From an uncultured bacterium (lineage in GTDB: Bacteria > RBG-13-66-14 > B26-G2 > WVWN01), in NCBI GenBank assembly GCA_964563535.1, contig CAZLXP010000001.1:423-64422 (forward strand): a stretch of 64,000 nt of DNA, read 5' to 3'. Of the stretch, positions 20,350-43,482 are shown piece by piece. Both the position numbers and the translations under genes were made by a program. The notes under the pieces were generated by a model. That model worked only from the letters and a program-made list of their open reading frames with translations. It was not told where the DNA came from and did not search any database. Position 1 is the first letter of the stretch. The number at the start of each line of letters is the position of its first letter.

Positions 20350-20399
20350 GGCACCGTATCCCCCGTGCCCTCGGCCGTGTGAAGGCCGTTTTTAAATAA
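20350..20399 (+). pseudogene. Orphan 3' fragment of an NHL-family gene (last ~11 codons ...ALGRVKAVFK plus stop). It is followed by the family 3' UTR and terminator.
   Basis: gcc ctc ggc cgt gtg aag gcc gtt ttt aaa taa matches the conserved family C-terminus. The downstream 100 bp (20400-20495) is about 85% identical to the sequence after the NHL gene at 38050-39009, including a stem-loop with a T-tract. Confidence 0.6.
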
Positions 20400-20588
20400 C
20401 GGCATAACGCAAACGAAACGCCGCCCTACCGGGGCGGCCTTTTTTATTTCAACTCGGCTCATCAGTAATACCCCGATATCTTCAACTGCTCCGCGCCGCG
20501 CTCGCGGCGGAACTTCACGTTGAGGATAAGCCCCACCGCCCGGGACGAAGGCCGTCACCGCGCCGCCTTTGTATCGTAGGCCAGGAAT

Positions 20589-20704
20589 TTTTGCATCGCG
20601 GCCCTGAACCTGCTATATTTTATATATATACCGAAATTCGTGAATTAAATCACAAATTACCGAAATTAACTATACGATTTCAATTAACCGAGAGGAGAGG
20701 CCCT
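20589..20704 (+). promoter_or_regulatory. Conserved AT-rich promoter/operator region of the NHL gene family (copy 1). It contains a near-palindrome, GTGAATTAAATCAC, at 20640-20653.
   Basis: About 115 bp are near-identical to 37932-38049, which lies upstream of the paralogue at 38050. The sequence is ...cctgctatattttatatatataccgaaattcGTGAATTAAATCAC... followed by a GAGGAG RBS and the ATG. Confidence 0.6.
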
Positions 20705-21676
20705 ATGAGAAACGTTTCTTGGATGGCGCTCGCGGCGGCGCTCGTCGCCGCGCCGGCCTTCGGCGATTGGGTCTACGAGGGCCAGTGGGGGTCGCGCGGG
20801 TCGGGTAACGGCCAGTTCAACACCCCGACGGGTGTAAGCGCCGCCGCGAGCGGTAACGTCTACGTCGCCGATTACAACAACTACCGCATACAATACTTCA
20901 CCGCCACCGGCTCCTACGTCGGCAAGTGGGGTTCGAAAGGTTCCGGTAATGGCCAGTTCGATGGCCCGTGGGGCGTCGCCGTCGCCCCCTCGAGCGGCAA
21001 CGTCTACGTCACGGATATCGGTAACAACCGCGTCCAATACTTCACCGCTACCGGCTCTTACCTCGGCCTGTGGGGCTCGTACGGCTCGGGAGACGGCCAG
21101 TTCAGATCCCCCTGCGGCGTCGCCGTCGCCCCCGGCGGCGACGTCTACGTCGCGGACCAGTCCAACAACCGAGTACAGTACTTTACCGCCACGGGTTCCT
21201 ACCTCGGCAAGTGGGGCTCGAACGGCTCCGGTAACGGGCAGTTCTATTGGCCTGCCGGCGTCGCCGTAACCCCCGATAACAAAGTATACGTCGCAGATAC
21301 GATGAACCACCGTGTCCAATACTTCACCGCGACGGGTTCCTACCTCGGCAAGTAGGGCTCTTTCGGCTCAGGCAACGGCCAGTTCGATTACCCGTACGGC
21401 GTCGCCGTAGCCCCCTCGAGCGGCGACGTCTACGTCGCCGAACAGGTCAACAACCGCGTCCAATACTTCACCTCTACCGGTTCCTACCTGGGTAAGTGGG
21501 GCTCGGGCGGCACGGGCAACGGCCAATTTGATTGGCCTTGCGGAGTATGTCTCAACGTCGGCGGCTCGCGTGTCTACGTCCCCGACCAAAGGAACCACCG
21601 CATCCAATATTTCAAGTGGGTCAATACGGCCGTAGCCCCCGCTTCCCTCGGCCGCGTGAAGGCGTTGTTTAAGTAA
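20705..21676 (+). pseudogene. NHL-repeat six-bladed beta-propeller protein (copy A). It is interrupted by an in-frame TAG at 21353-21355; the same frame continues to a TAA at 21674-21676.
   Basis: Signal peptide MRNVSWMALAAALVAAPAFG. Repeats of GSYLGKWGSxGSGNGQFxxPxGVAVAPxGNVYVADxxNHRIQYFT. At the stop, paralogues read YLGKWGS (TGG) where this copy reads YLGK*GS (TAG). The segment after the stop ends with the family tail WVNTAVAPASLGRVKALFK. Confidence 0.7.
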
Positions 21677-21747
21677 CGTGGGTGGCGCCGGGGAGAACCC
21701 TGCACCGCTCCGCTTTTTACGGCCGCGTAGGCCGTAGAGGAGGAACC

Positions 21748-22713
21748 ATGAGGAATTATATTTCAGCAACAGCGATCGTGATAACGCTCGCGTTGACCGC
21801 GCCCGCCGTCGGCGACTGGGTCTACGAGGGCAAGTGGGGCTCGCTGGGCTCGGGTAACAGCCAGTTTAACCAACCGGCCGGCGTCGCCGTCGCCCCCGCT
21901 AGCAATAACGTCTACGTAGCCGACCAGTATAACCACCGCATCCAATACTTCACCGCCACCGGCTCCTACCTCGGCCAGTGGGGTTCGTACGGCACGGGTA
22001 ACGGCCTGTTAAATCGCCCGTACGGCTTAGTCGTCGCCCCCGCGAGCGGCAACGTCTACGTCGCTGATTTCTACAACCACCGCGTCCAATACTTCACCGC
22101 CACCGGCTCCTACCTCGGCCAGTGGGGTTCGCGCGGCTCGGGTAACGGCCAGTTTAATTGGCCGATGGGCGTCGCGGTCGCCCCCGCGAGTGGCAACGTC
22201 TACGTCACCGATGGCGGCAACAACCGCATACAATATTTCACCGCCACCGGCTCCTACCTCGGGCAGTGGGGTAGTTCCCTTTTACCGGAATTAGGCGTCG
22301 TCGTCGCCCCCGCGAGCGGTAACGTCTACGTAGCGGATTTCCGGAACAACCGCGTCCAATACTTCACCGCCACCGGCTCCTACCTCGGCCAATGGGGCTC
22401 CGTCGGCACGGGTAACGGCCAGTTCAACGGCCCGGACGACGTAGACGTCGCCCCGGGGGGCGACGTCTACATCAGCGATTACGGCAACGACCGCATCCAA
22501 TACTTCACGGCGAGCGGCTCCTACCTCGGCAAGTGGGGCTCAAGCGGGTCGGGCAACGGCCAGTTCAACCGCCCCGTCGGAGTATGTTTCAACGTCGGCG
22601 GCACGCGCTTCTACGTCGCCGAAATGTCGGGCGCACGCATCCAATATTTCAAATGGGTCAACACAACCATTGCCCCCGCCTCCCTCGGCCGTGTGAAGGC
22701 ATTATTTAAATAA
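21748..22713 (+). CDS. Secreted NHL-repeat beta-propeller protein (copy B).
   Basis: GAGGAGGAA RBS. MRNYISATAIVITLALTAPAVGDWVYEGKWGS..., six NHL blades, C-terminus ...WVNTTIAPASLGRVKALFK. Confidence 0.8.
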   Translation: MRNYISATAIVITLALTAPAVGDWVYEGKWGSLGSGNSQFNQPAGVAVAPASNNVYVADQYNHRIQYFTATGSYLGQWGSYGTGNGLLNRPYGLVVAPASGNVYVADFYNHRVQYFTATGSYLGQWGSRGSGNGQFNWPMGVAVAPASGNVYVTDGGNNRIQYFTATGSYLGQWGSSLLPELGVVVAPASGNVYVADFRNNRVQYFTATGSYLGQWGSVGTGNGQFNGPDDVDVAPGGDVYISDYGNDRIQYFTASGSYLGKWGSSGSGNGQFNRPVGVCFNVGGTRFYVAEMSGARIQYFKWVNTTIAPASLGRVKALFK

Positions 22714-22732
22714 GGGCTACGCTGGAATTATT

Positions 22733-22759
22733 AAGGCGGCCGTCGGGCCGCCTTTTTTT
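22733..22759 (+). terminator. Rho-independent terminator after NHL copy B.
   Basis: The sequence aaGGCGGCCGtcggGCCGCCttttttt forms a GC stem with a T7 tract. Confidence 0.7.
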
Positions 22760-22862
22760 GGGTTAATTTTGTGTCACCCCCACCGCGAGTTGCGCTTAAC
22801 TGCCGGCAATAGCCCGTAACGTCCGGAGGGGCTTAACTCGTATAAAACACAGGCAGTTGCGC
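22760..22862 (+). repeat. About 100-bp repeat element, copy 1. It is the inverted partner of 24949-25042.
   Basis: gttaattttgtgtcacccccaccgcgagttgcgcttaactgccggcaatagcccgtaacgtccggaggggcttaactcgtataaaacacaggcagttgcgcg is about 85% identical to the reverse complement of 24949-25042. Both copies sit immediately 3' of a terminator. Confidence 0.65.
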
Positions 22863-23485
22863 GATTTTAGTTGCGGTTATTAGATTCGTCAAAAACGGCC
22901 GGTTTAAAATTTAATCTCCGCGCAACGTAGGGCATTCTCGCAAGCCTTTTTTTCTTGTATTCATTAGGCCCGGTTAAAAAGCCTCGGCTATTCCGTTTTT
23001 AACGCCCCTTTGGGGCCACCACGGGCCCCGCCCCCGGCGCGCGTCCTGGCCACACGCCCTCGTGCGTCCTGTGCCGTCCCGGGGCCGCCCGCCGCTCCGC
23101 CTCGGCCTCGTAGCTCCGGCCGTATTTTACCGTCTTATTCGGCGGGGGGCCCCCGCAACATCGCCGCCAGTAGTTGCGCCTCGCGCGTACCGGCCCGCGC
23201 CGCGATGACGTCTACCAGCAAGCTCCGTTTCACCTTCAACTGCGGCTGGCGTTCAACCACGCTATACGGTGGGCCGCCGCAACATTCGCCGGCTATGTCG
23301 TTTAGAAGTTTCTGCAGCCATAGGACGTCCCAAAACAGAAACCCGGCGACCTCGGATAGCGTATATTCGTCTCGCACCTCAACCTCCGCTGTAGTTTGCT
23401 CCCTGTCATTTTAGTCTACGATAATGTCCTTTAAGTTAGACAACGGTCGCGGCCACCTTCCGGGCGCCGGCGAGGTCGTTAAGGT

Positions 23486-24457
23486 TTATTTAAACAACGC
23501 CTTCACCCGGCCGAGGGAGGCGGGCGCAACGGCGTACTCCGTATCCTTGAAATATTGGACGCGGTCGTTAAGCTCGTCCGCTATATAAGCCCGGGGGCCC
23601 TTTACAGTTATACCCCCAGGTTTATTGAATTCGCCGTTACCCGTCCCGGACTTCCCCCACTTCCCGAGGAAGGACCCGGTAGCCGTGAAATACTGGACGC
23701 GGTGGTTGTTCAGGTCGGTCACGAGGACCGTTCCGTTCGGCAAAAAGGCCACGTCGCAGGGGCAATCGAACTCGCCGTCGCCGGTACCCTTCGAACCCCA
23801 CTTGCCCAGGAAGCTGCCCGCCCCCGTGAAGTATTGGACGCGGTGGTTCATAGAATCGGCTACGTAGACCTTACCGTCTAGTGAGAAACCTACGCCGTCG
23901 GGGTTATAGAATTCGCCGTCGCCGGAACCCAACGAGCCCCACTTGCCGAGGAAGGTTGCTTTCGAACCGCTCACCTTGAAGTATTGAATGCGATGGTTGC
24001 CGGTATCCGCTACGTAAATGTTACCGCCGGGCGCGACAGCTATACCCCGAGGGCCGTTGAATTCACCGTCGCCCGAACCCTGCGAGCCCCACCCGCCGAC
24101 GTACGAGCCGGTCTGGGTAAAGAACTGGACGCGATGGTTGCCCCGTTCGGTTACGTAGAGGTCGCCCCTAGACCCAGGGGCAACGCCCACCGGTTCGATA
24201 AACTGGCCGCTGCCGGTCCCAGGCGTACCCCATTTGCCCCTAAAGGACCCGTTTTCGCTGAAGTATTGGACGCGATGGTTAGTGGAATCGACGACGTAAA
24301 TTAAGCCGTTGGCGCCGACGGCGACGTCGGTGGGGATTTGGAATTCGCCATTACCCGTACCGCGCTTGCCCCATTGGCCTTCGTAGACCCAAGCTCCGTA
24401 GACCGCGGCGGCCGCCAGCGCCAAAACCGCAACCGTTAAAAATGCCCTGCGTTTCAT
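23486..24457 (-). CDS. Secreted NHL-repeat beta-propeller protein (copy C, the most divergent).
   Basis: MKRRAFLTVAVLALAAAAVYGAWVYEGQWGKRGTGNGEFQ...; six NHL blades; C-terminus ...YAVAPASLGRVKALFK. Confidence 0.8.
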   Translation of the reverse strand: MKRRAFLTVAVLALAAAAVYGAWVYEGQWGKRGTGNGEFQIPTDVAVGANGLIYVVDSTNHRVQYFSENGSFRGKWGTPGTGSGQFIEPVGVAPGSRGDLYVTERGNHRVQFFTQTGSYVGGWGSQGSGDGEFNGPRGIAVAPGGNIYVADTGNHRIQYFKVSGSKATFLGKWGSLGSGDGEFYNPDGVGFSLDGKVYVADSMNHRVQYFTGAGSFLGKWGSKGTGDGEFDCPCDVAFLPNGTVLVTDLNNHRVQYFTATGSFLGKWGKSGTGNGEFNKPGGITVKGPRAYIADELNDRVQYFKDTEYAVAPASLGRVKALFK

Positions 24458-24709: not shown

Positions 24710-24889
24710 ATGAAAATAACGGTTAAGTTGGTCCCGGCGGAGGAAGGCGGGTATACGGTGTATATCCCGGCGTTGCCCGGATGCATTAGCGAGGGCGATA
24801 CGCGCGAGGAGGCGCTGGCCAACATCAAGGAGGCGTTAGCGTTATACCTCGAGCCGGGGTGGCGGAACAGGCAGACGCAGCGGACTTAA
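24710..24889 (+). CDS. hicB: HicB-like (UPF0150) type II antitoxin, 59 aa. It is absent from the ORF track because it is under 60 aa.
   Basis: Manual translation: MKITVKLVPAEEGGYTVYIPALPGCISEGDTREEALANIKEALALYLEPGWRNRQTQRT. This matches the HicB/UPF0150 signature (YxAxxPxLPGCxxxGxTxEEAxxNxxEAxxL). A TATAAT-like -10 element lies at 24688-24693. No hicA partner was identified nearby. Confidence 0.7.
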   Translation: MKITVKLVPAEEGGYTVYIPALPGCISEGDTREEALANIKEALALYLEPGWRNRQTQRT

Positions 24890-24948
24890 AATCTTAAACG
24901 AGCCGTTTTCGACGAATCGAATAGGGGTAACGAAAATCGCGTAAAGAC

Positions 24949-25042
24949 CTGTGTTTTATGAGAGTTAAAGCGCTCCGGACATTACCGACTATTACTGGCA
25001 GTTCAGGGCAATTCGCGGTGGGTGTGACACAAAATTAACACA
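24949..25042 (-). repeat. About 100-bp repeat element, copy 2 (inverted relative to 22760-22862). A minus-strand terminator at 25043-25075 (AAAAAAGGCACGCTCGTCGGGCGCCTTTTTT) ends the 25094-25522 gene.
   Basis: See 22760-22862. The two copies bracket a 2.1-kb segment carrying ORF 23135-23377, NHL copy C and hicB. Confidence 0.65.
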
Positions 25043-25093
25043 AAAAAGGCGCCCGACGAGCGTGCCTTTTTTATTAAACTTCAACGACTACGA

Positions 25094-30035: not shown

Positions 30036-30084
30036 AGACCGTACCGGTAAATAATAAACTGGAAATAACGAAACGAGGTATGAG

Positions 30085-30918: not shown

Positions 30919-30930
30919 AATTAGAGTCCC

Positions 30931-31135
30931 CTACGCCGCCCGGCACGACAAGATCGTGGCGTTGGTGGAGGAGATGCTCGAGCTGCACAAACGCGTCGTC
31001 GCCGCCAAATCCGATACGGACAAAAAACGCCTCGAGCGCGCGATAAACGCCACCGACGGCAAAATAGACGCGCTGGTCTACGAGCTATACGGTTTGAGCG
31101 AGGAAAATATAAAGACCGTAGTAAGTAAATTATAA
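30931..31135 (+). repeat. R1: direct copy of the RM-gene 3' end (about 205 bp; encodes ...RHDKIVALVEEMLELHKRVVAAKSDTDKKRLERAINATDGKIDALVYELYGLSEENIKTVVSKL plus stop). A GC hairpin follows at 31136-31158.
   Basis: Direct nucleotide alignment to 29830-30035, about 80% identity. Same orientation as the RM gene. Confidence 0.85.
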
Positions 31136-31167
31136 GGGCGGCTTTCGCCGCCCCCCATTTTTAGACC

Positions 31168-31335
31168 TTACCCGGGTTTACATTCTTCGCACGGTTTATA
31201 CCCTTGGCCTTTTGCATACGACCTTTTTACCGTACGACGGTTAATAGGTTTTATATTATCTACCCATTTACAACCGGGTTTGTGGTACCGGCTATCCTCT
31301 TGTTTATCTGTAGAGATTATTACGTCGGGGTCCAT
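31168..31335 (-). CDS. Small Ada-type zinc-ribbon domain protein (55 aa). Not in the ORF track.
   Basis: AAGGAGGTG RBS. Manual translation MDPDVIISTDKQEDSRYHKPGCKWVDNIKPINRRTVKRSYAKGQGYKPCEECKPG matches the Ada_Zn_binding pattern YH.p.C...(n)...A...GyrPC..C.P. Confidence 0.5.
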   Translation of the reverse strand: MDPDVIISTDKQEDSRYHKPGCKWVDNIKPINRRTVKRSYAKGQGYKPCEECKPG

Positions 31336-31416
31336 AAAATCACCTCCTTTATCTTTATGGTTTTTGGTTGTCGGCGTTTCCTCTTACGGAAGCTTTTTAA
31401 AATTCCGACCGGAAAA

Positions 31417-31548
31417 TCATTTCTTTTTAGGGGTCTGGGATAAAGCGCTTCCGGCTGCCGTTTTACTTGGCTTAGAGGTCCGCCCGTCCCGTAGAACTTT
31501 CGAAGCCGCGGATGCCGCTTTCGGGCTTGTTACCTTTCCTTTCGTCAT
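31417..31548 (-). CDS. Small Lys/Ser/Ala-rich protein (43 aa). Not in the ORF track.
   Basis: AGGAGGTG RBS. MTKGKVTSPKAASAASKVLRDGRTSKPSKTAAGSALSQTPKKK. It lies upstream of, and is co-oriented with, the Ada-like mini-gene. Confidence 0.35.
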   Translation of the reverse strand: MTKGKVTSPKAASAASKVLRDGRTSKPSKTAAGSALSQTPKKK

Positions 31549-31657
31549 AATAACACCTCCTTCTTTTAGGTTTTTAATTACATTATAGTATTATAAAAAA
31601 AATCCGTCTAATACGCAATACATATTTCGGCATCCACCGAAGTCGTACCAACGAACG

Positions 31658-31857
31658 ACGTCGCCCGGTACGACAAGATGGTCGCGTTGGTGGAGGAGAT
31701 GCTCGCTCTCCACAAGCGCCTAAGTGTCGCCAACGCCGACGCGGATAAGAAAATGCTCCAACGCGCCATCGACGTTACGGATAAAAAGATCAACGCGCTG
31801 GTGTACGAATTATACGGTTTGACGGCTGAGGATATAAAAATTATGGAGTCGTCGTAG
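31658..31857 (+). repeat. R2: direct copy of the RM-gene 3' end (about 200 bp; ...VARYDKMVALVEEMLALHKRLSVANADADKKMLQRAIDVTDKKINALVYELYGLTAEDIKIMESS plus stop). A palindromic hairpin, GGTCTTAAGACC, follows at 31858-31884.
   Basis: Alignment to 29826-30035. Confidence 0.85.
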
Positions 31858-31946
31858 GGGACGGTCTTAAGACCGGCCCGCCTTGGGTTTTTAAGATATG
31901 TCGGGTTTGGTGGCACGGCCTAAAGGCCGCGCCCTACGAAAACCCC

Positions 31947-32037
31947 CGCCGCCACCGACCGCAAGATCGACGCGCTGGTCTACGAGCTATACGGCTTGAC
32001 CGATGAGGAGATAAAAATAGTAGAGGGTTCTATTTAA
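31947..32037 (+). repeat. R2b: short direct copy of the RM-gene 3' end (about 90 bp; AATDRKIDALVYELYGLTDEEIKIVEGSI plus stop).
   Basis: Alignment to 29940-30035. Its stop lies 4 nt before the ATG of the 32042 gene. Confidence 0.85.
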
Positions 32038-32041
32038 AACG

Positions 32042-32707
32042 ATGTTCTATGAATTAATACACTTTAAAATTAGCCCTATATTACTATTAACTCTGGGCTT
32101 ATCTTCCGAGTTTTTAGGCACCTTTTTAATTGCCGTGGACGCCGTCGCAATAAAAGAGTTCCTTTTAAAATTCCGATCCGATGTTTTTTATGAAAAACGC
32201 AGGGCCGATTTAGCGATTACTAAGTTTATTAATAGGTCTATTGCTTTTATTGTTTTCGGAACCGTTTTCGCCATAGTAACTACCGCGATTGGTTTAGATC
32301 TAGTACTTGCCTTGTTGCTCGCCCCATTAGGTTTTATTATACACCGTTTAATATCACGCATTCTTGGCCGGTTTTATTCACTAGTCCGTGTTCATCCGCC
32401 TAAATTGCGGGGGGGATGTATCTTAAAACCCTTATCGATTTTTATATGGCTATTATGGTTTATAGGCCTTTTGCTAACGTTTACCATATATATAGGTTTC
32501 GACATTGGTTTTGTTGTTGTGGTGTATGGGCTTAGCGAAAAATATTTAAAGCCTTTGGTGATAAAATTTTTCGATTATTTCAGCGAAAAGTGCATTAAGA
32601 AAGGCGAATCGTGGTTTCTTAAGTCATATATCATTACGGGGATTCTATTAATATTATTTGGGTTCTTATATCAAATTACGGGCACTATTCTAATTGCTTT
32701 ATATTAA
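32042..32707 (+). CDS. Polytopic membrane protein (about 5-6 TM helices), low GC, 221 aa.
   Basis: Hydrophobic helices ILLLTLGLSSEFLGTFLIAV, IAFIVFGTVFAIVTTAIGLDLVLALLLAPLGFII, IFIWLLWFIGLLLTFTIYIGFDIGFVVVVYG, IITGILLILFGFLYQITGTILIALY. No soluble domain recognised. Confidence 0.5.
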   Translation: MFYELIHFKISPILLLTLGLSSEFLGTFLIAVDAVAIKEFLLKFRSDVFYEKRRADLAITKFINRSIAFIVFGTVFAIVTTAIGLDLVLALLLAPLGFIIHRLISRILGRFYSLVRVHPPKLRGGCILKPLSIFIWLLWFIGLLLTFTIYIGFDIGFVVVVYGLSEKYLKPLVIKFFDYFSEKCIKKGESWFLKSYIITGILLILFGFLYQITGTILIALY

Positions 32708-32764
32708 TACCTGGTCCTATAGAAAATACGCGCTACGCGTGCCCCTCGGTCGTAACGCCGCGGC

Positions 32765-32855
32765 TGTCGCCGCGGCCCCCGATATCGACGCGCTGGTCTA
32801 TGAGCTGTACGGCCTGACCGATGAGGAGATAAGGATCGTGGAGGGGGCGAAGTAA
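32765..32855 (+). repeat. R3: short direct copy of the RM-gene 3' end (...DIDALVYELYGLTDEEIRIVEGAK plus stop).
   Basis: Alignment to 29950-30035. Confidence 0.8.
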
Positions 32856-32869
32856 AAGGAAACGGCTTT

Positions 32870-33364
32870 ATGTGGGATTGGTTACTAAAACACGTTCCCG
32901 AGTTAACCGCTTTGTCTACGGTTATTATGGCCGCGGCTACTACTATCGTAGCAGCCGCTACCGCGGTTTACGCGTTTTTAACTAATAAGTCATTAGCGCA
33001 GTCGAGGAAGGCCGTCACGGCTACCACCTTACCTTTACTCGCACTGCAGGAAGATACCTTTGGCGCTAATTACCCGCAATTAATATTCGTGAACCTGAAG
33101 AATAATGGATTTGGGCCGGCTTTAGAAATTCGACCTGAAATACAGGGGAATCCGGTCGGGTTTCATGTTTTAATTAAAAAACGTAGTTTGGGCCCGGGCG
33201 ATAGTTTAACGTTAGAAATAATAGGAGACCCCCATAAAGTAATCGATTATTCGGGAGTTTTGCGAGTTCGCGTATATTACCGGGCGATATTTGGCGTCGT
33301 ATACGAGTTATTGTTTGGTTTTTCCATTGATTCTCGCATCGTGGCTTTAATTCGCGTAGATTGA
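32870..33364 (+). CDS. Hypothetical protein with one N-terminal TM helix and a beta-rich C-terminal domain (164 aa).
   Basis: AAGGAAA RBS. N-terminal hydrophobic segment LTALSTVIMAAATTIVAAATAVYAFL. No motif recognised. Confidence 0.4.
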   Translation: MWDWLLKHVPELTALSTVIMAAATTIVAAATAVYAFLTNKSLAQSRKAVTATTLPLLALQEDTFGANYPQLIFVNLKNNGFGPALEIRPEIQGNPVGFHVLIKKRSLGPGDSLTLEIIGDPHKVIDYSGVLRVRVYYRAIFGVVYELLFGFSIDSRIVALIRVD

Positions 33365-33378
33365 AATAACGCAATATA

Positions 33379-33558
33379 GTGGCGTTGGTGGAGGAGATGC
33401 TCGCTCTCCACAAGCGCCTCGCCGCCGCCAAATCGGACGCCGACAAGAAAACGACCTAGCGCGCCATCGCCGCCACCGACCGTAAGATCGATGCCCTGGT
33501 CTACGAGCTGTACGGTTTGACGGATGAGGAGATAAGGATCTTGGAGGAATCTAGTTGA
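33379..33558 (+). repeat. R4: direct copy of the RM-gene 3' end (about 180 bp) carrying an internal TAG at 33457-33459 (...DADKKTT*RAIAATDRKIDALVYELYGLTDEEIRILEESS plus stop).
   Basis: Alignment to 29850-30035. The terminal TGA overlaps the ATG of the DUF3800 gene (ttgATGccg). Confidence 0.85.
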
Positions 33559-34277
33559 TGCCGTTATACCGGATTTATATCGACGAAGTCGGGAACCACG
33601 ACTTAAGGCACGCCGAGGATATTAATGAACGTTTCCTCTCTCTGACGGGGGTAATTATCGCCTCCGCTACTATAAGGAACGTCGTAGCCCCGGAGATGGT
33701 GCGATTAAAAGAGGAAGTGTTCGAGCCCGACCCTGACGAACCGGTAATATTTCACCGAAGGGACATCGTAAAAAGACGGGGTCCTTTTAAAATATTAGAC
33801 GAACCTGATAAACGCCGCGCTTTCGATGAAGCGTTGATAGCCGCTTTGACTCGGTGGGAATACAACGTCGTTACCGTAGTGATCGATAAACTAGCGCACC
33901 GCGACCAGTATAAAGTATGGATAGCGCACCCGTACCATTATTGCTTGCAGGTTTTGCTCGAAAGGTTTTTATTGTTTCTACAAGACCACGACGGCCATGG
34001 AGACGTCATGGTCGAAAGTCGGGGCGGTAAAGAGGATAAAAAACTAAAGGATTCCTTTCGAAGGCTATATAACCAAGGTACCGTTTGTATCGGGGCCGGT
34101 GATTTTCACCGTAGGTTTACTTCGGCCGAGTTGAAAGTAAAACCCAAAGCGGCTAACGTAGCGGGCCTTCAAATTTCAGATTTGGTTGCGTACCCCTCGC
34201 GCCGGGAAATCCTCCACGAACGGGTTTTTAAACGCCCGGAATTTCGACATTTAGCGACCGCGTGGTACGGATATTGA
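33555..34277 (+). CDS. DUF3800-family protein (240 aa).
   Basis: N-terminal LYRIYIDEVGNHDL matches the DUF3800 signature (YxIYIDESG...). The rest is a mixed alpha/beta soluble protein. Confidence 0.55.
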   Translation: MMPLYRIYIDEVGNHDLRHAEDINERFLSLTGVIIASATIRNVVAPEMVRLKEEVFEPDPDEPVIFHRRDIVKRRGPFKILDEPDKRRAFDEALIAALTRWEYNVVTVVIDKLAHRDQYKVWIAHPYHYCLQVLLERFLLFLQDHDGHGDVMVESRGGKEDKKLKDSFRRLYNQGTVCIGAGDFHRRFTSAELKVKPKAANVAGLQISDLVAYPSRREILHERVFKRPEFRHLATAWYGY

Positions 34278-34460
34278 TCGGCGGCAAATATTTACGTAGC
34301 CCGAGAACCGGGGATATATGGGGTTACGGAAAAAAGATGTTGCCGTAGAAAAAGGCCCCTTTCGGGGCCCCCGATGGACTTACCGCCCATCCACCTCCGC
34401 TAAACGGATTACTTATATAATACCCTATTACCACGAAATGTCAAGGGGTTTTTTAGCGTT

Positions 34461-34652
34461 CCCTGCCACGACACGATGGTGGCGTTGGTGGAGGATATGC
34501 TCGAGTTGCACAAGCGCCTCGCCGCCAAATCCGACGCCGACAAGCAGCGCCTCCAGCGCGCCATAAACGCCACCGACCGCAAGATCGACGCGCTGGTCTA
34601 CGAGCTGTACGGTTTGACAGATGAAGAGATAAGGATCGTGGAGGGTTCATAA
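34461..34652 (+). repeat. R5: direct copy of the RM-gene 3' end (about 190 bp; ...HDTMVALVEDMLELHKRLAAKSDADKQRLQRAINATDRKIDALVYELYGLTDEEIRIVEGS plus stop).
   Basis: Alignment to 29840-30035. The next gene's ATG lies 4 nt after a double TAA. Confidence 0.85.
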
Positions 34653-34655
34653 TAA

Positions 34656-35273
34656 ATGTTCGGGTTTATCTATTCTATAATTAAAGACGCGATCCGTTTA
34701 TTCCAATCGTTAGCCCCGGGTATTTCTATAACCTATAATGGTACAAGGTATTTCGCAAACCCGGGCCGTCTAATTTTTATGTTCAACGTAATGAATACCA
34801 AAAGAGATGACTTAAACCAATGCGCGCCTTGGTCATTAGTTATTAGTGATAAAAAGCCCGAACCGCTCGAAGCCGCGATGGCTAACTGGAATCTTAGGGA
34901 ATCACCTGATTATAATTATGAAGGCGGCGGCGGCCGTTATATTACTTTGAAAGGGAAATCCATACAAGAAGCGTGGTTCGAAATGTTTATTGACCCGGCG
35001 CCGTCGGTACAACATGGTGGTACGGAGCATTTTTTATTCCCGTTCGATGAAGATCCGGGGGATTACTTGCTTGCGTTGGTCATCTCATCCGGAAACAGCA
35101 AGTATTCTAAAGTAGTACGTTTTAAAATAAACGAGCGTATCGAACCTTACGACGATTTCGAATCGGTTATGTTTAAAACCGCGATTTCCGAAAATTTTAA
35201 GTCGAGCCTAAGGCAGCGCGCCCGGAATATTATTAAAAAAGTAGATTATTACGAATTAGTCAGGCCTTATTAA
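34656..35273 (+). CDS. Hypothetical soluble protein (205 aa).
   Basis: Intact ORF immediately 3' of R5. No motif recognised. Confidence 0.4.
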   Translation: MFGFIYSIIKDAIRLFQSLAPGISITYNGTRYFANPGRLIFMFNVMNTKRDDLNQCAPWSLVISDKKPEPLEAAMANWNLRESPDYNYEGGGGRYITLKGKSIQEAWFEMFIDPAPSVQHGGTEHFLFPFDEDPGDYLLALVISSGNSKYSKVVRFKINERIEPYDDFESVMFKTAISENFKSSLRQRARNIIKKVDYYELVRPY

Positions 35274-35321
35274 ACTTTTTTCAACGATAACGACTACCGG
35301 GCCGTTTTTTATCCGGTTTCC

Positions 35322-35369
35322 CGCCTGACCGACGAGGAGATAAAGATCGTGGAGGGGGCGGGGTCGTAG
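35322..35369 (+). repeat. R6: very short direct copy of the RM-gene 3' end (LTDEEIKIVEGAGS plus stop). A GGCCTTCAGGCC hairpin follows at 35370-35392.
   Basis: Alignment to the last ~45 nt of the RM gene. The stop-plus-hairpin is near-identical to that of R2 (tcgtaggggacggYctt..agRccggccc). Confidence 0.75.
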
Positions 35370-35422
35370 GGGACGGCCTTCAGGCCGGCCCAAAGTATCG
35401 TAATTATATAAAGGAGGAAAAA

Positions 35423-35824
35423 ATGCAGTTTCCCGACCGAACCGAGGCGATTATTATCCACGCGCGTTTGGCACGGGAAGCCGAAACGAAAGGCGATTTC
35501 GCCCTCGCGCGGTTATCTTATTTCAAATGGGTCGAATCGCTCCGGCAACAGAACGTTAACACCGGGGGCGCGTTAGAAAAGGATCTAGCTGCCGCTCAAA
35601 GGGCTTATTCCGCATTTGCGGGCCGAGACCCCCTTTACCTTAAAATATGTGGCGACGTCCTTTCCTATATCGCGAGTCATCCAGGCGTATTACAAACAGA
35701 CCTCTATAAAGAATTCCCCGCGTTTTCGCAGGAGGATTTACGGTATGCCCTCTATTTCGCGGGCGACCACGGTAAAATTAAACGCGAGAAGAAAGGTCGG
35801 ACGTATACCTTAACTGCGGCGTAA
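35423..35824 (+). CDS. Hypothetical protein (133 aa).
   Basis: AAAGGAGGAAAAAATG RBS. Co-oriented with the phosphatase-like gene 20 bp downstream. Confidence 0.4.
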   Translation: MQFPDRTEAIIIHARLAREAETKGDFALARLSYFKWVESLRQQNVNTGGALEKDLAAAQRAYSAFAGRDPLYLKICGDVLSYIASHPGVLQTDLYKEFPAFSQEDLRYALYFAGDHGKIKREKKGRTYTLTAA

Positions 35825-35843
35825 CCCGGATTCGGAGGTATTT

Positions 35844-36317
35844 ATGTTATCCGTTTGGGGAAACCTTTACGTTGGCGACGATGCCGATTGCTTTAGCGAC
35901 GAAAGGCCGGGATGGGCGGTAGTACACGCGTGCAAGAATCCCTGTCACGCGGCGGCCGTAGGTTATAGCGGTTCCCTATCATTCTCACATCCTAATTACT
36001 TACAATTGCGCTGCGGTTCACACCTTTATTTAAACCTTATAGACCCTCCGACGCCGCTATTTATACCCGCGTCGTTTAAATACGCGCTCGACTTTATTGA
36101 TGAATACATCGGCTCGCGTAAAGTCCTTATCCACTGCAACGAGGCGTTCTCCCGGGCGCCCTCCATCGCCCTTCTGTATTTAGCGAACCGCGCTAAAGTT
36201 ATAAGGGAAACTTCCTACGCGGCAGCGTGCGAGGATTTCCTTAGATTGTGCCCGGCTTATACCCCTGGGGAAGGCATACAAACTTTTCTTATTACGAATT
36301 GGGAATCCTTACGGTAA
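35844..36317 (+). CDS. Dual-specificity/tyrosine-phosphatase-like protein (CX5R P-loop).
   Basis: VLIHCNEAFSRAPSIALLYL fits the HCxxxxxR(S/T) phosphatase signature (C-N-E-A-F-S-R). Confidence 0.5.
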   Translation: MLSVWGNLYVGDDADCFSDERPGWAVVHACKNPCHAAAVGYSGSLSFSHPNYLQLRCGSHLYLNLIDPPTPLFIPASFKYALDFIDEYIGSRKVLIHCNEAFSRAPSIALLYLANRAKVIRETSYAAACEDFLRLCPAYTPGEGIQTFLITNWESLR

Positions 36318-36365
36318 TGCACCGCGAACGGTTCCGCCAGGGATAACGACTGCCTCGAGCGGGGC

Positions 36366-36461
36366 GTCGCCGCCGCCGCCACCGACCGCAAAATATACGC
36401 GCTGGTCTACGAGTTGTACGGCTTGACGGTTGAGGAGATTAAAACCGTGGAGGGGGTGTAG
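36366..36461 (+). repeat. R7: short direct copy of the RM-gene 3' end (AATDRKIYALVYELYGLTVEEIKTVEGV plus stop). A perfect palindrome, GGGCGAATGGCCATTCGCCC, follows.
   Basis: Alignment to 29940-30035. Confidence 0.8.
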
Positions 36462-36490
36462 GGGCGAATGGCCATTCGCCCCTAGCCGGG

Positions 36491-36525: not shown

Positions 36526-36577
36526 TCGATGCCGGCCTATTCATAGGCCAGTTTTTTTTATTTAAATTCGGCTCGAG

Positions 36578-37417
36578 CTACTTGAACAACGCCTTGACGC
36601 GGCCGAGGGAGGCGGGGGCAATGGCTGTATTGACCCATTTGAAATATTGGATGCGGTGGTTGTAGGTATCCGCGACGTAGACGCGGGAGCCGCCGGCGTT
36701 GAGACACAATCCGCACGGGCCGTTGAATTGGCCGTTACCGGAGCCGCTCGAGCCCCACTTACCCACGTAGGACCCACTCGCGGTGAAGTATTGGATGCGG
36801 TTGTTACCCGAATCGGCGACGTAGACGTTACCGTCGGGGGCGACGGCGACTCCGTACGGGTAACGGAATTGGCCGTCGCCCGTGCCGTACGAGCCCCACT
36901 GGCCGATGTAGGAACCGGCCGCGTTGAAGTATTGGATGCGGTTATTTTCGCGATCGGCGACGTATACGTTGCCGCCCGGGGCGACGGCGACGCCCCACGG
37001 GTAATAGAACTGGCCGTTGCCCGTGCCGGGCGTGCCCCGCTGGCCTACGTAGGAGCCGGTGGCGGTGAAGTATTGGACGCGTTGGTTACCCCAATCGGGG
37101 ACGTAGACGTTGCCCCTGAAGGCGACGGCGATGTCCTGTGGCCAATCGAACTGGCCGTTGCCCGTGCCGTACGAGCCCCACTGGCCGAGGTAGGACCCGG
37201 TGGCCGTAAAGTATTGGATGCGGTTGTTCCACCAATCGGCGACGTAGACGTCCCCGCACGGGGCGGCGACGACGCCCGTCGGGTATTGGAACTGGCCGTT
37301 GCCCGAGCCGCCCGAGCCCCACTGCGCTTCGTAGACCCAGGCGGCGAAGGCCGCGGCCGCCAGCGTTGCCGCCGCCGCCAGCGTTGCCGCCGCTGCGATA
37401 ATTAAAACCGTTTTCAT
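36578..37417 (-). CDS. Secreted NHL-repeat beta-propeller protein (copy D, 279 aa, 5 blades).
   Basis: MKTVLIIAAAATLAAAATLAAAAFAAWVYEAQWGSGGSGNGQ...; C-terminus ...WVNTAIAPASLGRVKALFK. Confidence 0.8.
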   Translation of the reverse strand: MKTVLIIAAAATLAAAATLAAAAFAAWVYEAQWGSGGSGNGQFQYPTGVVAAPCGDVYVADWWNNRIQYFTATGSYLGQWGSYGTGNGQFDWPQDIAVAFRGNVYVPDWGNQRVQYFTATGSYVGQRGTPGTGNGQFYYPWGVAVAPGGNVYVADRENNRIQYFNAAGSYIGQWGSYGTGDGQFRYPYGVAVAPDGNVYVADSGNNRIQYFTASGSYVGKWGSSGSGNGQFNGPCGLCLNAGGSRVYVADTYNHRIQYFKWVNTAIAPASLGRVKALFK

Positions 37418-37837
37418 CGACTAACCTCCTGTTTGGTAATTACCGTTCCCCAAAACGCTGCTTCGGGTTAAATAGAAATAAAAACCCCAGGCCGGCCTTT
37501 AGCCGAACCTGGGTAGTATTCAACTTCACACGGCGCGCGTAGCGCCACGCCCCTTAATTATGTTTCCTCCAACCCGGCCATTCCCTACCCCCTTCCGAAG
37601 GCCGCCGGGTTACTTATACCTTTGCCGGCGATTTTTAAATAACCCAAGATTTTTGTCAAGCATAATTTATCGTATTCATAACTATATTAGTAAGGTAAAG
37701 CCATTGCGGGCCGCCACATAACAAAGGGGCCACGGAGGCCCCTTTCATTTAATTACGACCCGGCGGCCTAGGCGAAAGCGCCCCGCCCCTTGACAACCCC
37801 CCCTAAGCGGTTAAACTATGCGTCGCTCAAGGCCGGG

Positions 37838-37870
37838 GTGGCAGAACTGGCAGACGCAGCGGACTTAAAA
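37838..37870 (+). pseudogene. Fragment of a hicB-like 3' end (...GWQNWQTQRT plus stop).
   Basis: ggggtggcagaactggcagacgcagcggacttaa matches 24856-24889 (gccggggtggcggaacaggcagacgcagcggacttaa). Confidence 0.55.
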
Positions 37871-37931
37871 AACGGCTACGCTGGGATTATTAAGGCGGCC
37901 GCAAGGGGCGCTTTTGTTTCGTGGGCGAGAA

Positions 37932-38049
37932 ATATTTGCATCCCGGCCCTAAGCCTGCTATACTTTTATATATATACCGAAATACGTGAATTAATTCACT
38001 AGTTACCGTAATAAATTAATAATTTCAACCAACCGGAAGGAGACGTTCT
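37932..38049 (+). promoter_or_regulatory. Conserved AT-rich promoter/operator region of the NHL family (copy 2). It contains a perfect 14-bp palindrome, GTGAATTAATTCAC, at 37986-37999.
   Basis: Near-identical to 20589-20704. GGAAGGAG RBS precedes the ATG at 38050. Confidence 0.6.
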
Positions 38050-39009
38050 ATGAGAAACGTTCTTTTGATGGCGCTGGCGACGGCGCTCGTTGCCGCGCCC
38101 GCCTTCGCCGACTGGGTCTACGAGGGCAAGTGGGGCTCGAGCGGCTCGGGTAACGGCCAGTTTAATCAGCCGGCCGGCGTCGACGTCGCCCCCTCGAGCG
38201 ACAACATCTACGTAGCCGACCAGTATAACCACCGCATCCAATACTTCACCGCGAGTGGGTCCTACCTGGGCCAGTGGGGCTCGAGCGGCTCGGGTAACGG
38301 CCAGTTCAATCGCCCGTACGACGTAACCGTCGCCCCTGGCGGCGACGTCTACGTCGCTGACTTCTACAACCACCGCATCCAATACTTCACCTCGACCGGC
38401 TCCTACCTCGGCAAGTGGGGCTCGAACGGCTCGGGTAACGGCCTGTTCAATTACCCGATGGGCGTCACCGTCGCCCCCGCGAGCGGTAACGTCTACGTTA
38501 ATGATAGCGGCAACGGCCGCGTACAATATTTCACCGCCATCGGCTCCTACCTCGGCCAGTGGGGTAGTTCCTTATTAACGGAATGTGGCATCGCCGTCGT
38601 CCCCGCTAACGGTAACGTCTATATCGCGGATTTCAGGAACGACCGCATCCGGTACTTTACCTATAGCGGCTCCGTCCTCGGCTCGTGGGGCTCTACCGGC
38701 TCCGGGAACGGCCAGTTCGGCGGCCCGGATGACGTCGACGTCGCCCCCGGGAGCGGCGACGCATACGTCAGCGATTGGGGTAACGCCCGCATCCAATACT
38801 TCACCTCGACCGGCTCCTACCTCGGCAAGTGGGGCTCGTTCGGCTCGGGCAACGGCCAGTTCAACCGCCCATGCGGAGTATGTTTCAACGTCGGCGGCTC
38901 GCGCTTCTACGTCACCGATTTCTACAACCACCGCATCCAATATTTCAAGTGGGAAAATACGGCCATTACCCCTGCCTCTCTCGGCCGCGTGAAAGCGATT
39001 TTTAAGTAA
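38050..39009 (+). CDS. Secreted NHL-repeat beta-propeller protein (copy E; closest paralogue of copy A).
   Basis: MRNVLLMALATALVAAPAFADWVYEGKWGS...; six blades; C-terminus ...WENTAITPASLGRVKAIFK. Confidence 0.8.
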   Translation: MRNVLLMALATALVAAPAFADWVYEGKWGSSGSGNGQFNQPAGVDVAPSSDNIYVADQYNHRIQYFTASGSYLGQWGSSGSGNGQFNRPYDVTVAPGGDVYVADFYNHRIQYFTSTGSYLGKWGSNGSGNGLFNYPMGVTVAPASGNVYVNDSGNGRVQYFTAIGSYLGQWGSSLLTECGIAVVPANGNVYIADFRNDRIRYFTYSGSVLGSWGSTGSGNGQFGGPDDVDVAPGSGDAYVSDWGNARIQYFTSTGSYLGKWGSFGSGNGQFNRPCGVCFNVGGSRFYVTDFYNHRIQYFKWENTAITPASLGRVKAIFK

Positions 39010-39025
39010 CGGCATCATACAAACA

Positions 39026-39058
39026 AAACGCCGCCCCTCCGGGCGGCCTTTTTTATTT
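39026..39058 (+). terminator. Rho-independent terminator after NHL copy E.
   Basis: aaaaCGCCGCCCctccGGGCGGCCttttttattt. It is followed by about 50 bp conserved with 20447-20495. Confidence 0.7.
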
Positions 39059-39282
39059 CAACTCGGCTCGTCAGTAATACGCCGCCATCTTCAGCTGGTC
39101 CGCGACGCGCCCGCGGCACCCAAAATAAGCTAACGTATAGGGGCGGGCATTCATGTCCGGAGCACCCTAACGCGCCGTCGCGGAGCTCATGTTTATTGGT
39201 GGTGTGGTTAAGGGCAAGCGGTAACGGTCCCCGGGGGAGCCCAAAACGAAGGCCGTAGCCGCGCGGCCCATCCTACTTCCAA

Positions 39283-43467: not shown

Positions 43468-43482
43468 CGAGAACGCCTTCCT

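Follow-up and report, generated by a model that had tools for sequence, protein, structure and literature searches.

Five NHL-repeat genes with a common C-terminal tail

The stretch of DNA analyzed here (the window, 64 kb) harbors five NHL-repeat genes, designated A to E, of which B, C and E are intact. The Pfam NHL model PF01436 was matched with E-values of 1e-38 to 5e-43, and all five open reading frames end in APASLGRVKA[LI]FK directly followed by the stop codon. This agrees, also in the coordinates of the genes, with the first-pass annotation, which had described five paralogues sharing a C-terminal tail, one of them interrupted by a nonsense mutation. The tail motif occurs six times in the window. 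The array is located inside a defence island and comprises the following features:

20367-20399, + strand: orphan tail ALGRVKAVFK and stop codon, without a gene body upstream; homologous to the 3' end of E
20420-20448, + strand: terminator-like hairpin and T-run 3' of the orphan tail, overlapping block 20432-20508
20590-20704, + strand: promoter-like site TTTGCA-18-TATATT with TG, and 5' leader of A; a duplicate is present upstream of E
20705-21676, + strand: copy A, NHL gene with six blades and an internal TAG; inferred signal peptide 20705-20764, tail 21629-21673
21748-22713, + strand: copy B, intact, six blades, 6-aa deletion in blade 4; tail 22666-22710
22733-22754, + strand: terminator-like hairpin 3' of B
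22754-22921, unstranded: left arm of a 168-nt inverted repeat bracketing copy C (partner arm 24880-25047)
23486-24457, - strand: copy C, intact, six blades; tail 23489-23533
24880-25047, unstranded: right arm of the inverted repeat around C, 81-82% complementary to the left arm
36578-37417, - strand: copy D, 279 aa, five blades; tail 36581-36625
37865-37918, + strand: B-like 3'-flank remnant upstream of E (last codons, mutated stop, half a terminator stem)
37935-38049, + strand: promoter-like site TTTGCA-18-TATACT with TG, and 5' leader of E
38050-39009, + strand: copy E, intact, six blades; inferred signal peptide 38050-38109, tail 38962-39006; modelled with AlphaFold2
39030-39117, + strand: terminator-like hairpin (39030-39047), T-run and 3' flank of E, common to the orphan at 20420-20508

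Copy A contains a single in-frame TAG at 21353-21355 (codon 217), which replaces the conserved Trp of the blade motif, and is separated from B by a spacer of 71 nt. The 6-aa deletion in blade 4 of B is also present in E. Copy D has lost exactly one 47-aa blade, and in its AlphaFold2 model the propeller is still closed (pLDDT 87, pTM 0.83). Identity among the paralogues ranges from 52 to 75%, with C being the most divergent (52-60% to the remaining copies). The closest NHL match to the window copies had 53% identity in the protein database and 68% among genome loci, and no close relative of the host genome was found in the collections searched.

Upstream of A and E, 72-93% identity over about 190 nt was detected, including the same promoter-like hexamers and a palindrome, which is perfect in the leader region of E (GTGAATTAATTCAC, 37986-37999) and nearly so in that of A (GTGAATTAAATCAC, 20640-20653). 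The two copies had been described as sharing both flanks; this holds upstream but not downstream, where A is followed by the spacer to B while the 3' flank of E matches the orphan. Homology between the orphan and the 3' end of E begins within the tail codons and extends for about 140 nt through the stop codon, the terminator hairpin and past them, with 90% identity between 20432-20508 and 39041-39117. The isolated 3' fragment proposed earlier was recovered as this orphan tail with its E-like 3' flank. A second remnant (37865-37918), a 3' flank of the B type, was found in addition. Each arm of the inverted repeat around C is preceded by a terminator.

Evolution of the array

The array bears the marks of ordinary paralogue turnover: genes duplicated in tandem, a copy short of one blade, the footprint of an inversion, a nonsense codon and remnants left by deletions. 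It probably changes through common duplication, inversion and deletion events together with unequal crossing-over between blades, rather than through a programmed variation system. An earlier suggestion was that the family diversifies as surface-variation systems do, by gene conversion or recombination. In a system of that kind, conserved ends would guide exchange between silent and expressed NHL cassettes. Several paralogues in both orientations, the nonsense copy, the copy lacking one blade, the orphan 3' fragments and the inverted repeat around C are in line with this idea, as are tandem arrays with orphan tails that also occur in other genomes. However, rearrangement is to be expected anyway since the array lies in a defence island, and the conserved ends and variable middles on which the suggestion was based were not observed at the DNA level: identity is roughly uniform along the coding sequences (60-90%), long identical tracts are absent, and the proteins vary mostly at about six loop positions per blade. 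Each copy either has a promoter-like site of its own or belongs to an operon; they are not silent cassettes. Furthermore, the arms of the inverted repeat are only 81-82% alike, the tail DNA is too little conserved to serve as recombination substrate (see below), and the ORFs scanned in the flanks and the island include no recombinase, invertase or reverse transcriptase. Programmed surface variation is thereby weakly refuted and regarded as very improbable.

Fold of the NHL proteins and position of the tail

In the AlphaFold2 model of E (pLDDT 91, pTM 0.88), residues 21-302 form a confident six-bladed propeller. The model has 23 strands for six blades, and strand 21-28 completes blade 6; as modelled, the conserved mature N-terminus (WVYEGxWG) is the closing (velcro) strand of the propeller. 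The tail region (residues 303-319) was modelled as coil with the pLDDT falling from 62 to 47, while residues 272-278 of D were drawn as a short helix of low confidence. Foldseek superposed the E model on the NHL domains of TRIM71 and Thin with an rmsd of 1.2 Å over 282 columns. The alignment to these solved domains stops before the tail, which places the tail outside the fold, and judging from the models it is not part of the propeller. The tail glycine is one of only three invariant columns among 47 NHL homologues.

Occurrence of the tail on unrelated exported proteins

Species genomes were scanned with a DNA pattern that demanded a stop codon, yielding at least 109 genome loci. At least 190 occurrences of the consensus A-V-x-P-[AT]-S-L-G-[RK]-V-K-A-L-[FY]-[RK]-stop were recorded, spread over about 15 MAGs labelled as Coatesbacteria, Zixiibacteriota, Krumholzibacteriia, Gemmatimonadota or unclassified. 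One Coatesbacteria chromosome, complete at 2.35 Mb, carries at least 32 copies, and other MAGs have at least 35, 27 and 25. The conserved unit has 15 residues and not 13 as first noted, as A at -15 and V at -14 are conserved too. Among the matches listed, 59 of the 135 complete carriers are NHL proteins and 76 are not, and together they form at least 20 sequence clusters. The consensus is identical in both groups, including positions -15 and -14, which were outside the selection by the search pattern. In unrelated families from several phyla, the residues P, S, G, K and A show 88-100% invariance, and the final residue is R or K in 79-91%. Ten non-NHL carriers were compared with Pfam; the matches include a PD40 propeller, and six of the ten matched no family. 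Below the gathering score, Ycf48/BNR-like and DUF5050-like propellers and a NosD-like beta-helix were matched. In one non-NHL family the tail is present in 104 of 104 database homologues and another anchor in none, so that in this family it could be an integral functional element.

Almost all instances of a relaxed motif that were listed (196 of 198) end exactly one residue before the stop codon, a figure that is partly ascertained because the carriers were seeded by a stop-requiring pattern, only about 48 of the 198 being independent. The relaxed motif gave no match in reversed-sequence controls of the loci and the window. By a crude rule of our own rather than a trained predictor, signal-peptide-like N-termini were assigned to 117 of the 135 carriers listed (about 87%). 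Remarkably different codons encode the same peptide: 121 identical tails are specified by 117 different DNA sequences, the variation lies mainly in third positions, and Ser, Leu and Arg are each drawn from both of their codon families, which shows that selection acts on the peptide. Synonymous differences are also found among the tail copies of the window. The host lineages encode Omp85, TamB, TonB and LPS-type GT9, indicating that an outer membrane is present.

A putative C-terminal sorting or docking signal

Of the eight attributes by which bioRxiv 10.1101/2023.06.07.544157 characterizes sorting signals of this kind, the tail shows six. It fits the genomic criteria for a C-terminal sorting signal, apart from the transmembrane segment and the basic cluster. 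In NHL homologues of other lineages the same C-terminal position is occupied by T9SS CTDs (PF18962 or FlgD-Ig), or by a hydrophobic segment, followed by basic residues, that looks anchor-like by eye. The tail was not covered by Pfam or NCBIfam models, PDB chains or the searchable literature. The proposal of the first-pass annotation that it is a new sorting, anchoring or partner-binding peptide, unlike known sorting tags, is therefore strengthened by the non-NHL carriers, by its position outside the fold and by the lack of a match to any curated sorting-signal model. Clustering of all ORFs in the 109 loci revealed no recurrent tail-less partner gene, the window flanks contained no sortase- or exosortase-like gene, and the annotated neighbourhoods of three carriers had no receptor or enzyme candidate in common.

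Three other functions of the tail were considered. Its location directly after the third strand of the last blade would suit a structural element of the propeller, either a closing strand or a plug, but blade 6 obtains its fourth strand from the N-terminus, the tail is an unstructured coil that solved NHL domains do not align to, and non-propeller proteins carry it as well; this reading is effectively refuted. It is rather unlikely that the tail forms a short cationic amphipathic helix and tethers exported proteins by adhering to LPS or a membrane leaflet itself, without dedicated machinery. In our reading of a helical wheel, LGRVKALFR has a face made up of L, V, L and F and, opposite to it, one made up of R, K and R, the short helix in D points in this direction, and the low pLDDT fits disorder in solution, which is typical of the membrane-targeting C-terminal helices of MinD and PBP5. 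In such helices, however, amphipathicity is conserved and not the sequence, whereas in the tail five residues are nearly invariant and the spacing to the carboxyl end is constant to one residue; moreover, ten residues make a very short anchor and the tail of E was modelled as coil. The tail might also concern maturation or turnover instead of location, as a propeptide cleaved off by a periplasmic C-terminal processing protease or as a degron or PDZ ligand. C-terminal peptides are recognized by PDZ-domain proteases, and the tail is free, flexible, strictly C-terminal and at a fixed distance to the carboxylate. Yet known PDZ and Tsp-type ligands have hydrophobic end residues, in contrast to the terminal R or K of the tail, one degron on dozens of unrelated exported proteins is hard to explain, and no protease gene recurs beside the carriers in the 109 loci, making a processing or quality-control tag quite improbable.

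Taken together, the tail probably serves as an address or docking tag that has not been described before. The best joint explanation, which we hold with moderate confidence, is a decaying array of Sec-exported NHL propellers that bear a portable C-terminal sorting/docking tag, whose partner and destination are inferred. In each small six-bladed NHL protein, the first strand after the signal peptide would close the last blade, which would be followed by the flexible 15-residue tail ending in a free carboxyl group. Portable and locked to the C-terminus, the tail is present on dozens of exported proteins in a single genome that are otherwise unrelated, NHL repeats not being required, in outer-membrane-bearing uncultured bacteria related to Zixibacteria/Coatesbacteria and in some Krumholzibacteria and Gemmatimonadota. 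After Sec export, a single conserved partner, be it a receptor or an enzyme, may bind the free peptide and might direct or attach the tailed proteins to a common destination, the cell envelope or cell surface. Such a signal would differ in kind from sortase/exosortase signals and T9SS C-terminal domains.

Comparison with known systems

The propellers resemble the six-bladed domains of TRIM-NHL proteins (TRIM71/LIN-41, Thin, Brat), with 36-40% identity and an rmsd of 1.2-1.5 Å between a window copy and TRIM71/Thin, and bacterial ScyF, for which the window proteins reached NCBIfam scores of 188-233 bits. These scores are below the 350-bit cut-off, however, and the window proteins lack the PEP-CTERM of ScyF; unlike both groups, they are secreted stand-alone propellers.

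With the small tripartite signals (LPXTG/sortase, PEP-CTERM/exosortase, GlyGly-CTERM/rhombosortase, MYXO-CTERM/myxosortase, PGF-CTERM/archaeosortase) the tail shares its strictly C-terminal position, its dozens of copies per genome, few near-invariant signature residues, otherwise unrelated carriers with signal peptides, and homologues in other lineages that bear other sorting modules at the same position. It differs in having neither a membrane-spanning hydrophobic segment nor a terminal Arg cluster: the whole tag has 15 residues with interspersed basic ones, matches no NCBIfam model, and had no cognate enzyme in the neighbourhoods scanned.

The T9SS CTD (type A TIGR04183/PF18962, FlgD-Ig-like) is likewise found on Sec-exported proteins in the FCB-related part of the bacterial tree, and in longer NHL homologues elsewhere it takes the place of the tail. 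T9SS CTDs are folded beta-sandwiches of about 70-100 residues, whereas the tail has 15, is unstructured in the models and matches no CTD model. Canonical T9SS CTD proteins are also encoded in the tail-bearing genomes.

Dockerin tags and chaperone-usher-bound C-terminal strands offer an analogy, in that one C-terminal module docks many exported proteins to one partner, although dockerins are folded calcium-binding domains of ~70 residues and no scaffold or chaperone candidate was found for the tail. The penultimate aromatic and the alternating hydrophobic residues of the tail are reminiscent of pilin C-termini. Finally, the C-terminal helices of MinD and PBP5/PBP6 are similarly short, cationic, amphipathic on a wheel and disordered when free, but these are poorly conserved, whereas the tail is near-invariant across families and phyla and is held in a fixed register.

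Five NHL paralogues and their remnants

Five open reading frames of the window had been assigned to one family of secreted NHL proteins in the first-pass annotation. Their coordinates proved right, and each ends in APASLGRVKA[LI]FK followed directly by a stop codon:

20705-21676 (+), paralogue A
21748-22713 (+), paralogue B
23486-24457 (-), paralogue C
36578-37417 (-), paralogue D
38050-39009 (+), paralogue E

B, C, D and E matched the Pfam NHL model (PF01436) at E-values of 1e-38 to 5e-43 (130-143 bits against a cut-off of 20, 4-5 stretches each). A is the copy described as nonsense-mutated, and a single TAG at 21353-21355 indeed stands in place of a blade-motif Trp in an otherwise open frame. 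D lacks exactly one 47-residue blade, and B and E have a 6-residue deletion in blade 4 in common. Identity between the paralogues is 52-75%; it is highest for the pairs B/E and A/D, and C stands apart from the rest. The genes had been portrayed as having conserved ends and variable middles, but DNA identity is about 60-90% along the entire coding sequences, and variation at the protein level falls on about six loop positions per blade.

An orphan 3' fragment had also been reported, and a sixth tail, ALGRVKAVFK-stop, was found without a gene body at 20367-20399. Its homology to the 3' end of E begins within the tail codons and extends for about 140 nt across the stop codon, a terminator hairpin, whose pairing is kept despite sequence changes, and the flank. 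Directly upstream of E, at 37865-37918, there is a further remnant, which corresponds to the 3' flank of B. The proposed upstream similarity of A and E was recovered over about 190 nt (72-93% identity) with the same promoter-like hexamers and the palindrome GTGAATTAATTCAC, whereas the downstream similarity proposed for this pair was not: A and E have no downstream region in common. The palindrome is located at 20640-20653 (A copy, one mismatch) and 37986-37999 (E copy), both on the forward strand, just 3' of the promoter-like -10 hexamers, and is flanked by two TACCGAAAT-like direct repeats. It has three matches in the window at up to two mismatches, against 0.16 expected, and looks like a putative operator for a dimeric regulator. 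Rfam and tRNA scans of the window gave no matches.

The N-terminal end closes the propeller and the C-terminal tail lies outside it

The AlphaFold2 model of E, based on 47 homologues (pLDDT 91, pTM 0.88), is a six-bladed propeller spanning residues 21-302. Each of five blades consists of four consecutive strands, and blade 6 is formed by three C-terminal strands together with the N-terminal strand 21-28 (WVYEGKWG). Because this strand completes blade 6, the invariant signal-peptide junction of the family is explained as the velcro strand, which closes the last blade; its motif is that of the fourth strand of all other blades (SYLGKWGS). Five-bladed D was still modelled as a closed propeller (pLDDT 87, pTM 0.83), with its tail as a short helix of low confidence.

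Residues 303-319 of E were modelled as coil (pLDDT declining from 62 to 47), so that in the model the tail is an unstructured extension and not the closing strand of the propeller. Foldseek aligned E with the NHL domains of TRIM71 and Thin over 282 columns (rmsd 1.2 Å, 40% identity), with the tail outside the alignment. A structural role of the tail, as velcro or plug, was rejected, as it is coil in the E model, lies outside the Foldseek alignment and is present on non-NHL carriers. The six-bladed fold of E with terminal-strand closure is that expected of an NHL-repeat beta-propeller. Scores against the ScyF model (scytonemin PEP-CTERM NHL protein, NF035926) were 188-233 bits versus a curated cut-off of 350, and the C-terminus is the tail and not the PEP-CTERM that ScyF requires. 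The ends of the NHL genes are therefore conserved for different reasons, the fold at the N-terminus and, at the C-terminus, a tag shared across the proteome. Neither end supports the recombination or surface-variation system that had been proposed from them.

The tail is shared by many unrelated exported proteins

Even the best database homologues share only 53% identity with E, yet those with a length of about 310-335 residues mostly terminate in P-[AST]-S-L-G-R-V-K-A-L-F-[RK]. Longer NHL homologues from other lineages carry a T9SS CTD (PF18962 or FlgD-Ig) or a hydrophobic-plus-basic anchor at this position. One genome per species was scanned with a degenerate DNA pattern of the tail and stop codon, which yielded at least 109 loci (L-numbers below) from about 15 MAGs. 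Among the matches listed, these were labelled Coatesbacteria, Zixiibacteriota, Krumholzibacteriia, Gemmatimonadota or plain 'bacterium', and the nearest NHL relatives of the window copies (62-68% identical) came from Zixiibacteriota- and Coatesbacteria-labelled and several unclassified MAGs. A complete 2.35-Mb Coatesbacteria chromosome (CP070633.1) encodes at least 32 tails, and other MAGs at least 35, 27, 25 and 21.

Complete carriers, i.e. tail-ending proteins of 140 aa or longer, numbered 135. Among the matches listed, 59 resembled the NHL proteins of the window and 76 were non-NHL, so that the tail is not confined to the propeller family. Carriers are 145-490 aa long (median 300) and group into at least 20 sequence clusters. 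Pfam scans of ten non-NHL carriers identified one PD40 propeller, gave no match for six and only weak matches below gathering scores for three (Ycf48/BNR-like, DUF5050-like and NosD/DUF1565 beta-helix-like). A signal-peptide-like N-terminus was called in 117 of the 135 by a simple, crude rule, and several of the other 18 look like wrongly chosen start codons.

The 15-residue consensus, A-V-x-P-[AT]-S-L-G-[RK]-V-K-A-L-[FY]-[RK], is identical in NHL and non-NHL carriers, and the agreement extends to positions -15 and -14, both left free in the search pattern. P, S, G, K and A are conserved at 88-100%, several of these positions being fixed by the pattern; G, P and S are invariant in NHL alignments. 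The last residue is R or K in 79-91% of carriers, with H, Q or N in some, and the penultimate residue is aromatic. A relaxed motif without a required stop codon occurred 198 times in the loci and the window and never in reversed-sequence controls; 196 instances lay exactly one residue before the stop codon, about 150 of the 198 having been pre-selected by the pattern itself.

Conservation of the tail is at the level of the peptide and not of the DNA. The same peptide is encoded by 117 DNA versions in 121 tails, with variation at third codon positions and with both codon families in use for each of Ser, Leu and Arg. The tails of the window copies likewise differ from each other by synonymous changes.

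A 49-aa concatemer of three tail variants returned one match among 75 candidates. In a search of 1.84 billion representative proteins the profile spanned 30 columns and with them the NHL strand of its first sequence, which biased the 210 matches towards NHL proteins; it still gave non-NHL carriers and W-variants of the tail (T-W-G-R-[IL]-K-A-L-Y-R). One of the proteins found, P0248 (L110 8001-8819; GCA_964596775.1), is a putative lipoprotein of 272 aa whose end is made up of four tandem W-variant tails with 8-10 linker residues between them (TTWGRIKALYR...TTWSTIKGVYS...GTWGRIKALIA...VTWGGIKAQVL). In no other protein seen was the motif internal and repeated, and these tandem, partly internal copies are left unexplained by a simple C-terminus-only tag model.

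A tailed non-NHL family of 206-214 aa, without a Pfam family and with the motif CHTS...NYGGNTP, was present in two to three tandem copies at L111/L112 and L115, and the tail or a near variant was present in every one of its 104 homologues in the database. Its neighbourhood (PPIase, MazG, BirA, HhH-GPD, GT9, CbiM, cupredoxin and GT2 genes) is kept between an ENA metagenome scaffold and the Coatesbacteria chromosome.

Another tailed secreted family, of about 250 aa, contains a conserved in-frame TGA (...GNYMY[FW]-C-P-G-TGA-G-G-G-[TS]-W...). Its members, from Coatesbacteria, Zixiibacteriota and an unclassified MAG, are:

L088 (reverse-strand 53, 872, 1803), three tandem copies
L098 (4360, 5272), two members
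L017 (545), one member
L007 (5457), one member

Protein conservation continues in frame for 71 codons beyond the TGA in all seven cases. The C-x-x-U-like motif suggests that these may be exported selenoproteins; a Se_S_carrier (PF11823) gene was found in the Coatesbacteria genome.

Evolution of the array

The copies are arranged in the order A and B (+), C (-), an island of about 12 kb, D (-) and E (+). Around C lies an inverted repeat of 168 nt (22754-22921 and 24880-25047, 81-82% complementary) with a terminator before each arm, which looks like the footprint of a possible inversion. In other genomes, too, tailed NHL genes form tandem arrays, among which recent duplicates, truncated copies and orphan tails occur.

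Orphan tails with a perfect tail frame were observed at L035 (reverse-strand 1662, 3752), L069 (1507), L081 (1702) and L094 (4131). Three orphan tails lie exactly 130-133 nt past the stop codon of a tail-bearing gene, and two from different MAGs have a common upstream context. Breakpoints fall just 5' of the tail, and the tail DNA itself is not conserved. TAA, TAG and TGA all occur among the stop codons upstream of the orphan tails of other genomes; these tails are therefore regarded as remnants, and read-through or selenocysteine insertion was rejected.

Surface variation had been put forward for this locus. Programmed variation cassettes combine one expression site with promoterless silent copies and long identical tracts, whereas the copies studied here have their own promoter-like sites, a uniform identity of 60-90% and no identical tracts. 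Neither a recombinase nor an invertase or reverse transcriptase was present among the Pfam-scanned open reading frames of the locus, and the array showed no feature that defines a programmed variation system. It is consistent with paralogues arising and decaying in the ordinary way within a variable region.

This region includes EPS and two-component genes upstream of the array, a type IIG restriction-modification enzyme with a string of small cassettes in the island between C and D, and a defence island downstream of E (41926-55296, reverse strand):

27156-30035 (+), type IIG restriction-modification gene
30085-30918 (+), Pycsar-cyclase-like protein, within the type IIG remnant array
41926-43467 (-), Cap17-like ATP nucleosidase with PNP domain
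43483-44538 (-), SMODS nucleotidyltransferase
within 41926-55296 (-), QueC-like protein
46487-49273 (-), ResIII helicase
49351-50745 (-), Schlafen/AlbA_2 protein
51813-54425 (-), N6/N4 DNA methylase
55654-62094, open reading frame of 2146 aa

The SMODS and Cap17-like nucleosidase genes are CBASS-like. Within two intervals, 24-36 kb and 54-62 kb, the GC content of some parts is as low as 45-53%. The type IIG gene ends in ...HDKMVALVEEMLALHKR...ALVYELYGLTDEEIxIVEG-stop, and its last 20-75 codons are repeated about eight more times downstream (29822-36478, forward strand), finishing near 31155, 31857, 32037, 32855, 33558, 34652, 35369 and 36461. Behind most remnants, at a distance ranging from a few nt to about 60 nt, comes a small open reading frame that differs from case to case; besides the Pycsar-cyclase-like protein these reading frames encode a membrane protein, a DUF3800 protein and several proteins without a family. 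The arrangement looks like a series of cargo genes that may each have brought a copy of the restriction-modification 3' end, and it suggests that the conserved C-terminal coding stretch could be a recombination hot-spot.

Possible function of the tail

The tail is a flexible, strictly C-terminal peptide of exported proteins that is under peptide-level selection and common to many unrelated carriers. We consider it probable, if far from certain, that a single conserved partner would bind the free C-terminal peptide of the exported carriers and would send or attach them to a common envelope or surface destination. The main rival is that the tail acts directly as a membrane-binding amphipathic helix; its sequence is amphipathic on a helical wheel and AlphaFold2 modelled the tail of D as a helix, if at low confidence. 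That P, S, G, K and A hardly vary and that the distance to the carboxylate is fixed, however, favours a protein reader. A role as processing or degron tag would be possible but is poorly motivated.

Clustering of all open reading frames of at least 120 aa in the 109 listed loci revealed no recurrent tail-less partner gene, and a PorV/FadL-like outer-membrane protein was encoded in only three of them. The flanks of the window contain an EPS locus and two-component/sigma-54 regulators, with similarities below curated cut-offs, and a search there for a sortase, an exosortase or a PEP-CTERM system found none. Local searches of the window flanks, the listed loci and annotated carrier neighbourhoods thus gave no candidate for a tail partner or cognate sorting enzyme.

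A bolder proposal, and one we hold to be rather doubtful, is that in Zixibacteria/Coatesbacteria-like and neighbouring FCB-related lineages the tail might be how a so far undescribed pathway of envelope sorting or surface attachment, equipped with machinery of its own, recognises its cargo; this address label would serve dozens of exported proteins per cell, parallel to and distinct from T9SS and distinct from all sortase-like systems. If true, this would be the first bacterial C-terminal sorting signal consisting of a short soluble peptide alone. C-terminal sorting tags have repeatedly opened the way to new envelope machineries, as for sortases, exosortases, rhombosortases, myxosortases and T9SS. 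In several uncultured phyla a large part of all small secreted proteins bears the tail, and as a one-line rule it would predict which proteins share a common envelope destination. It is moreover a ready query for phylogenetic profiling of the missing partner and a possible short, portable tag for surface display.

Comparison with known C-terminal signals

The tail had been described as unlike known sorting tags, which was borne out: curated NCBIfam and Pfam models, those of T9SS CTDs among them, matched the tail neither in full proteins nor in isolated tail peptides. A PDB sequence search with the tail profile returned NHL-strand matches only and no chain with the tail. In the literature searched, no paper contained tail sequences, and neither NHL repeats nor a C-terminal sorting signal had been linked with these phyla.

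Small C-terminal sorting signals are recognised by eight attributes (bioRxiv 10.1101/2023.06.07.544157), of which the tail shows six and lacks two architectural ones. It is C-terminal (196 of 198 instances one residue from the stop codon), occurs in many copies per genome (at least 32, 35, 27, 25 and 21 per MAG) and has invariant signature residues. Most carriers have a signal peptide (117/135 by the crude rule) and are otherwise unrelated (at least 20 clusters, 76 non-NHL carriers, diverse or no Pfam families), and NHL homologues exist with a T9SS CTD, a hydrophobic-plus-basic end or no signal; an exception to this last attribute is the CHTS...NYGGNTP family, with the tail or a near variant in all its homologues. 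A hydrophobic segment of transmembrane length is missing, as the tail has 15 residues with R/K at -7, -5 and -1 and no hydrophobic run, and a single terminal R/K takes the place of the cluster of two to five basic residues.

An outer membrane is present in the host lineages, since Omp85, TamB, TonB and a GT9 heptosyltransferase-type enzyme are encoded. An outer-membrane beta-signal was rejected, the last residue being R/K in 79-91% with the aromatic residue penultimate; such a signal has its aromatic residue at the last position and is part of a beta-barrel, whereas tail carriers are soluble propellers or beta-helix-like proteins. The T9SS CTD is a folded domain of about 70-100 residues (PF18962/TIGR04183), whereas the tail region is an unstructured end of 15-17 residues without such a match, and it is therefore not a T9SS CTD. 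Canonical T9SS CTD proteins are encoded in the same genomes, and both classes of C-terminal ends therefore coexist there.
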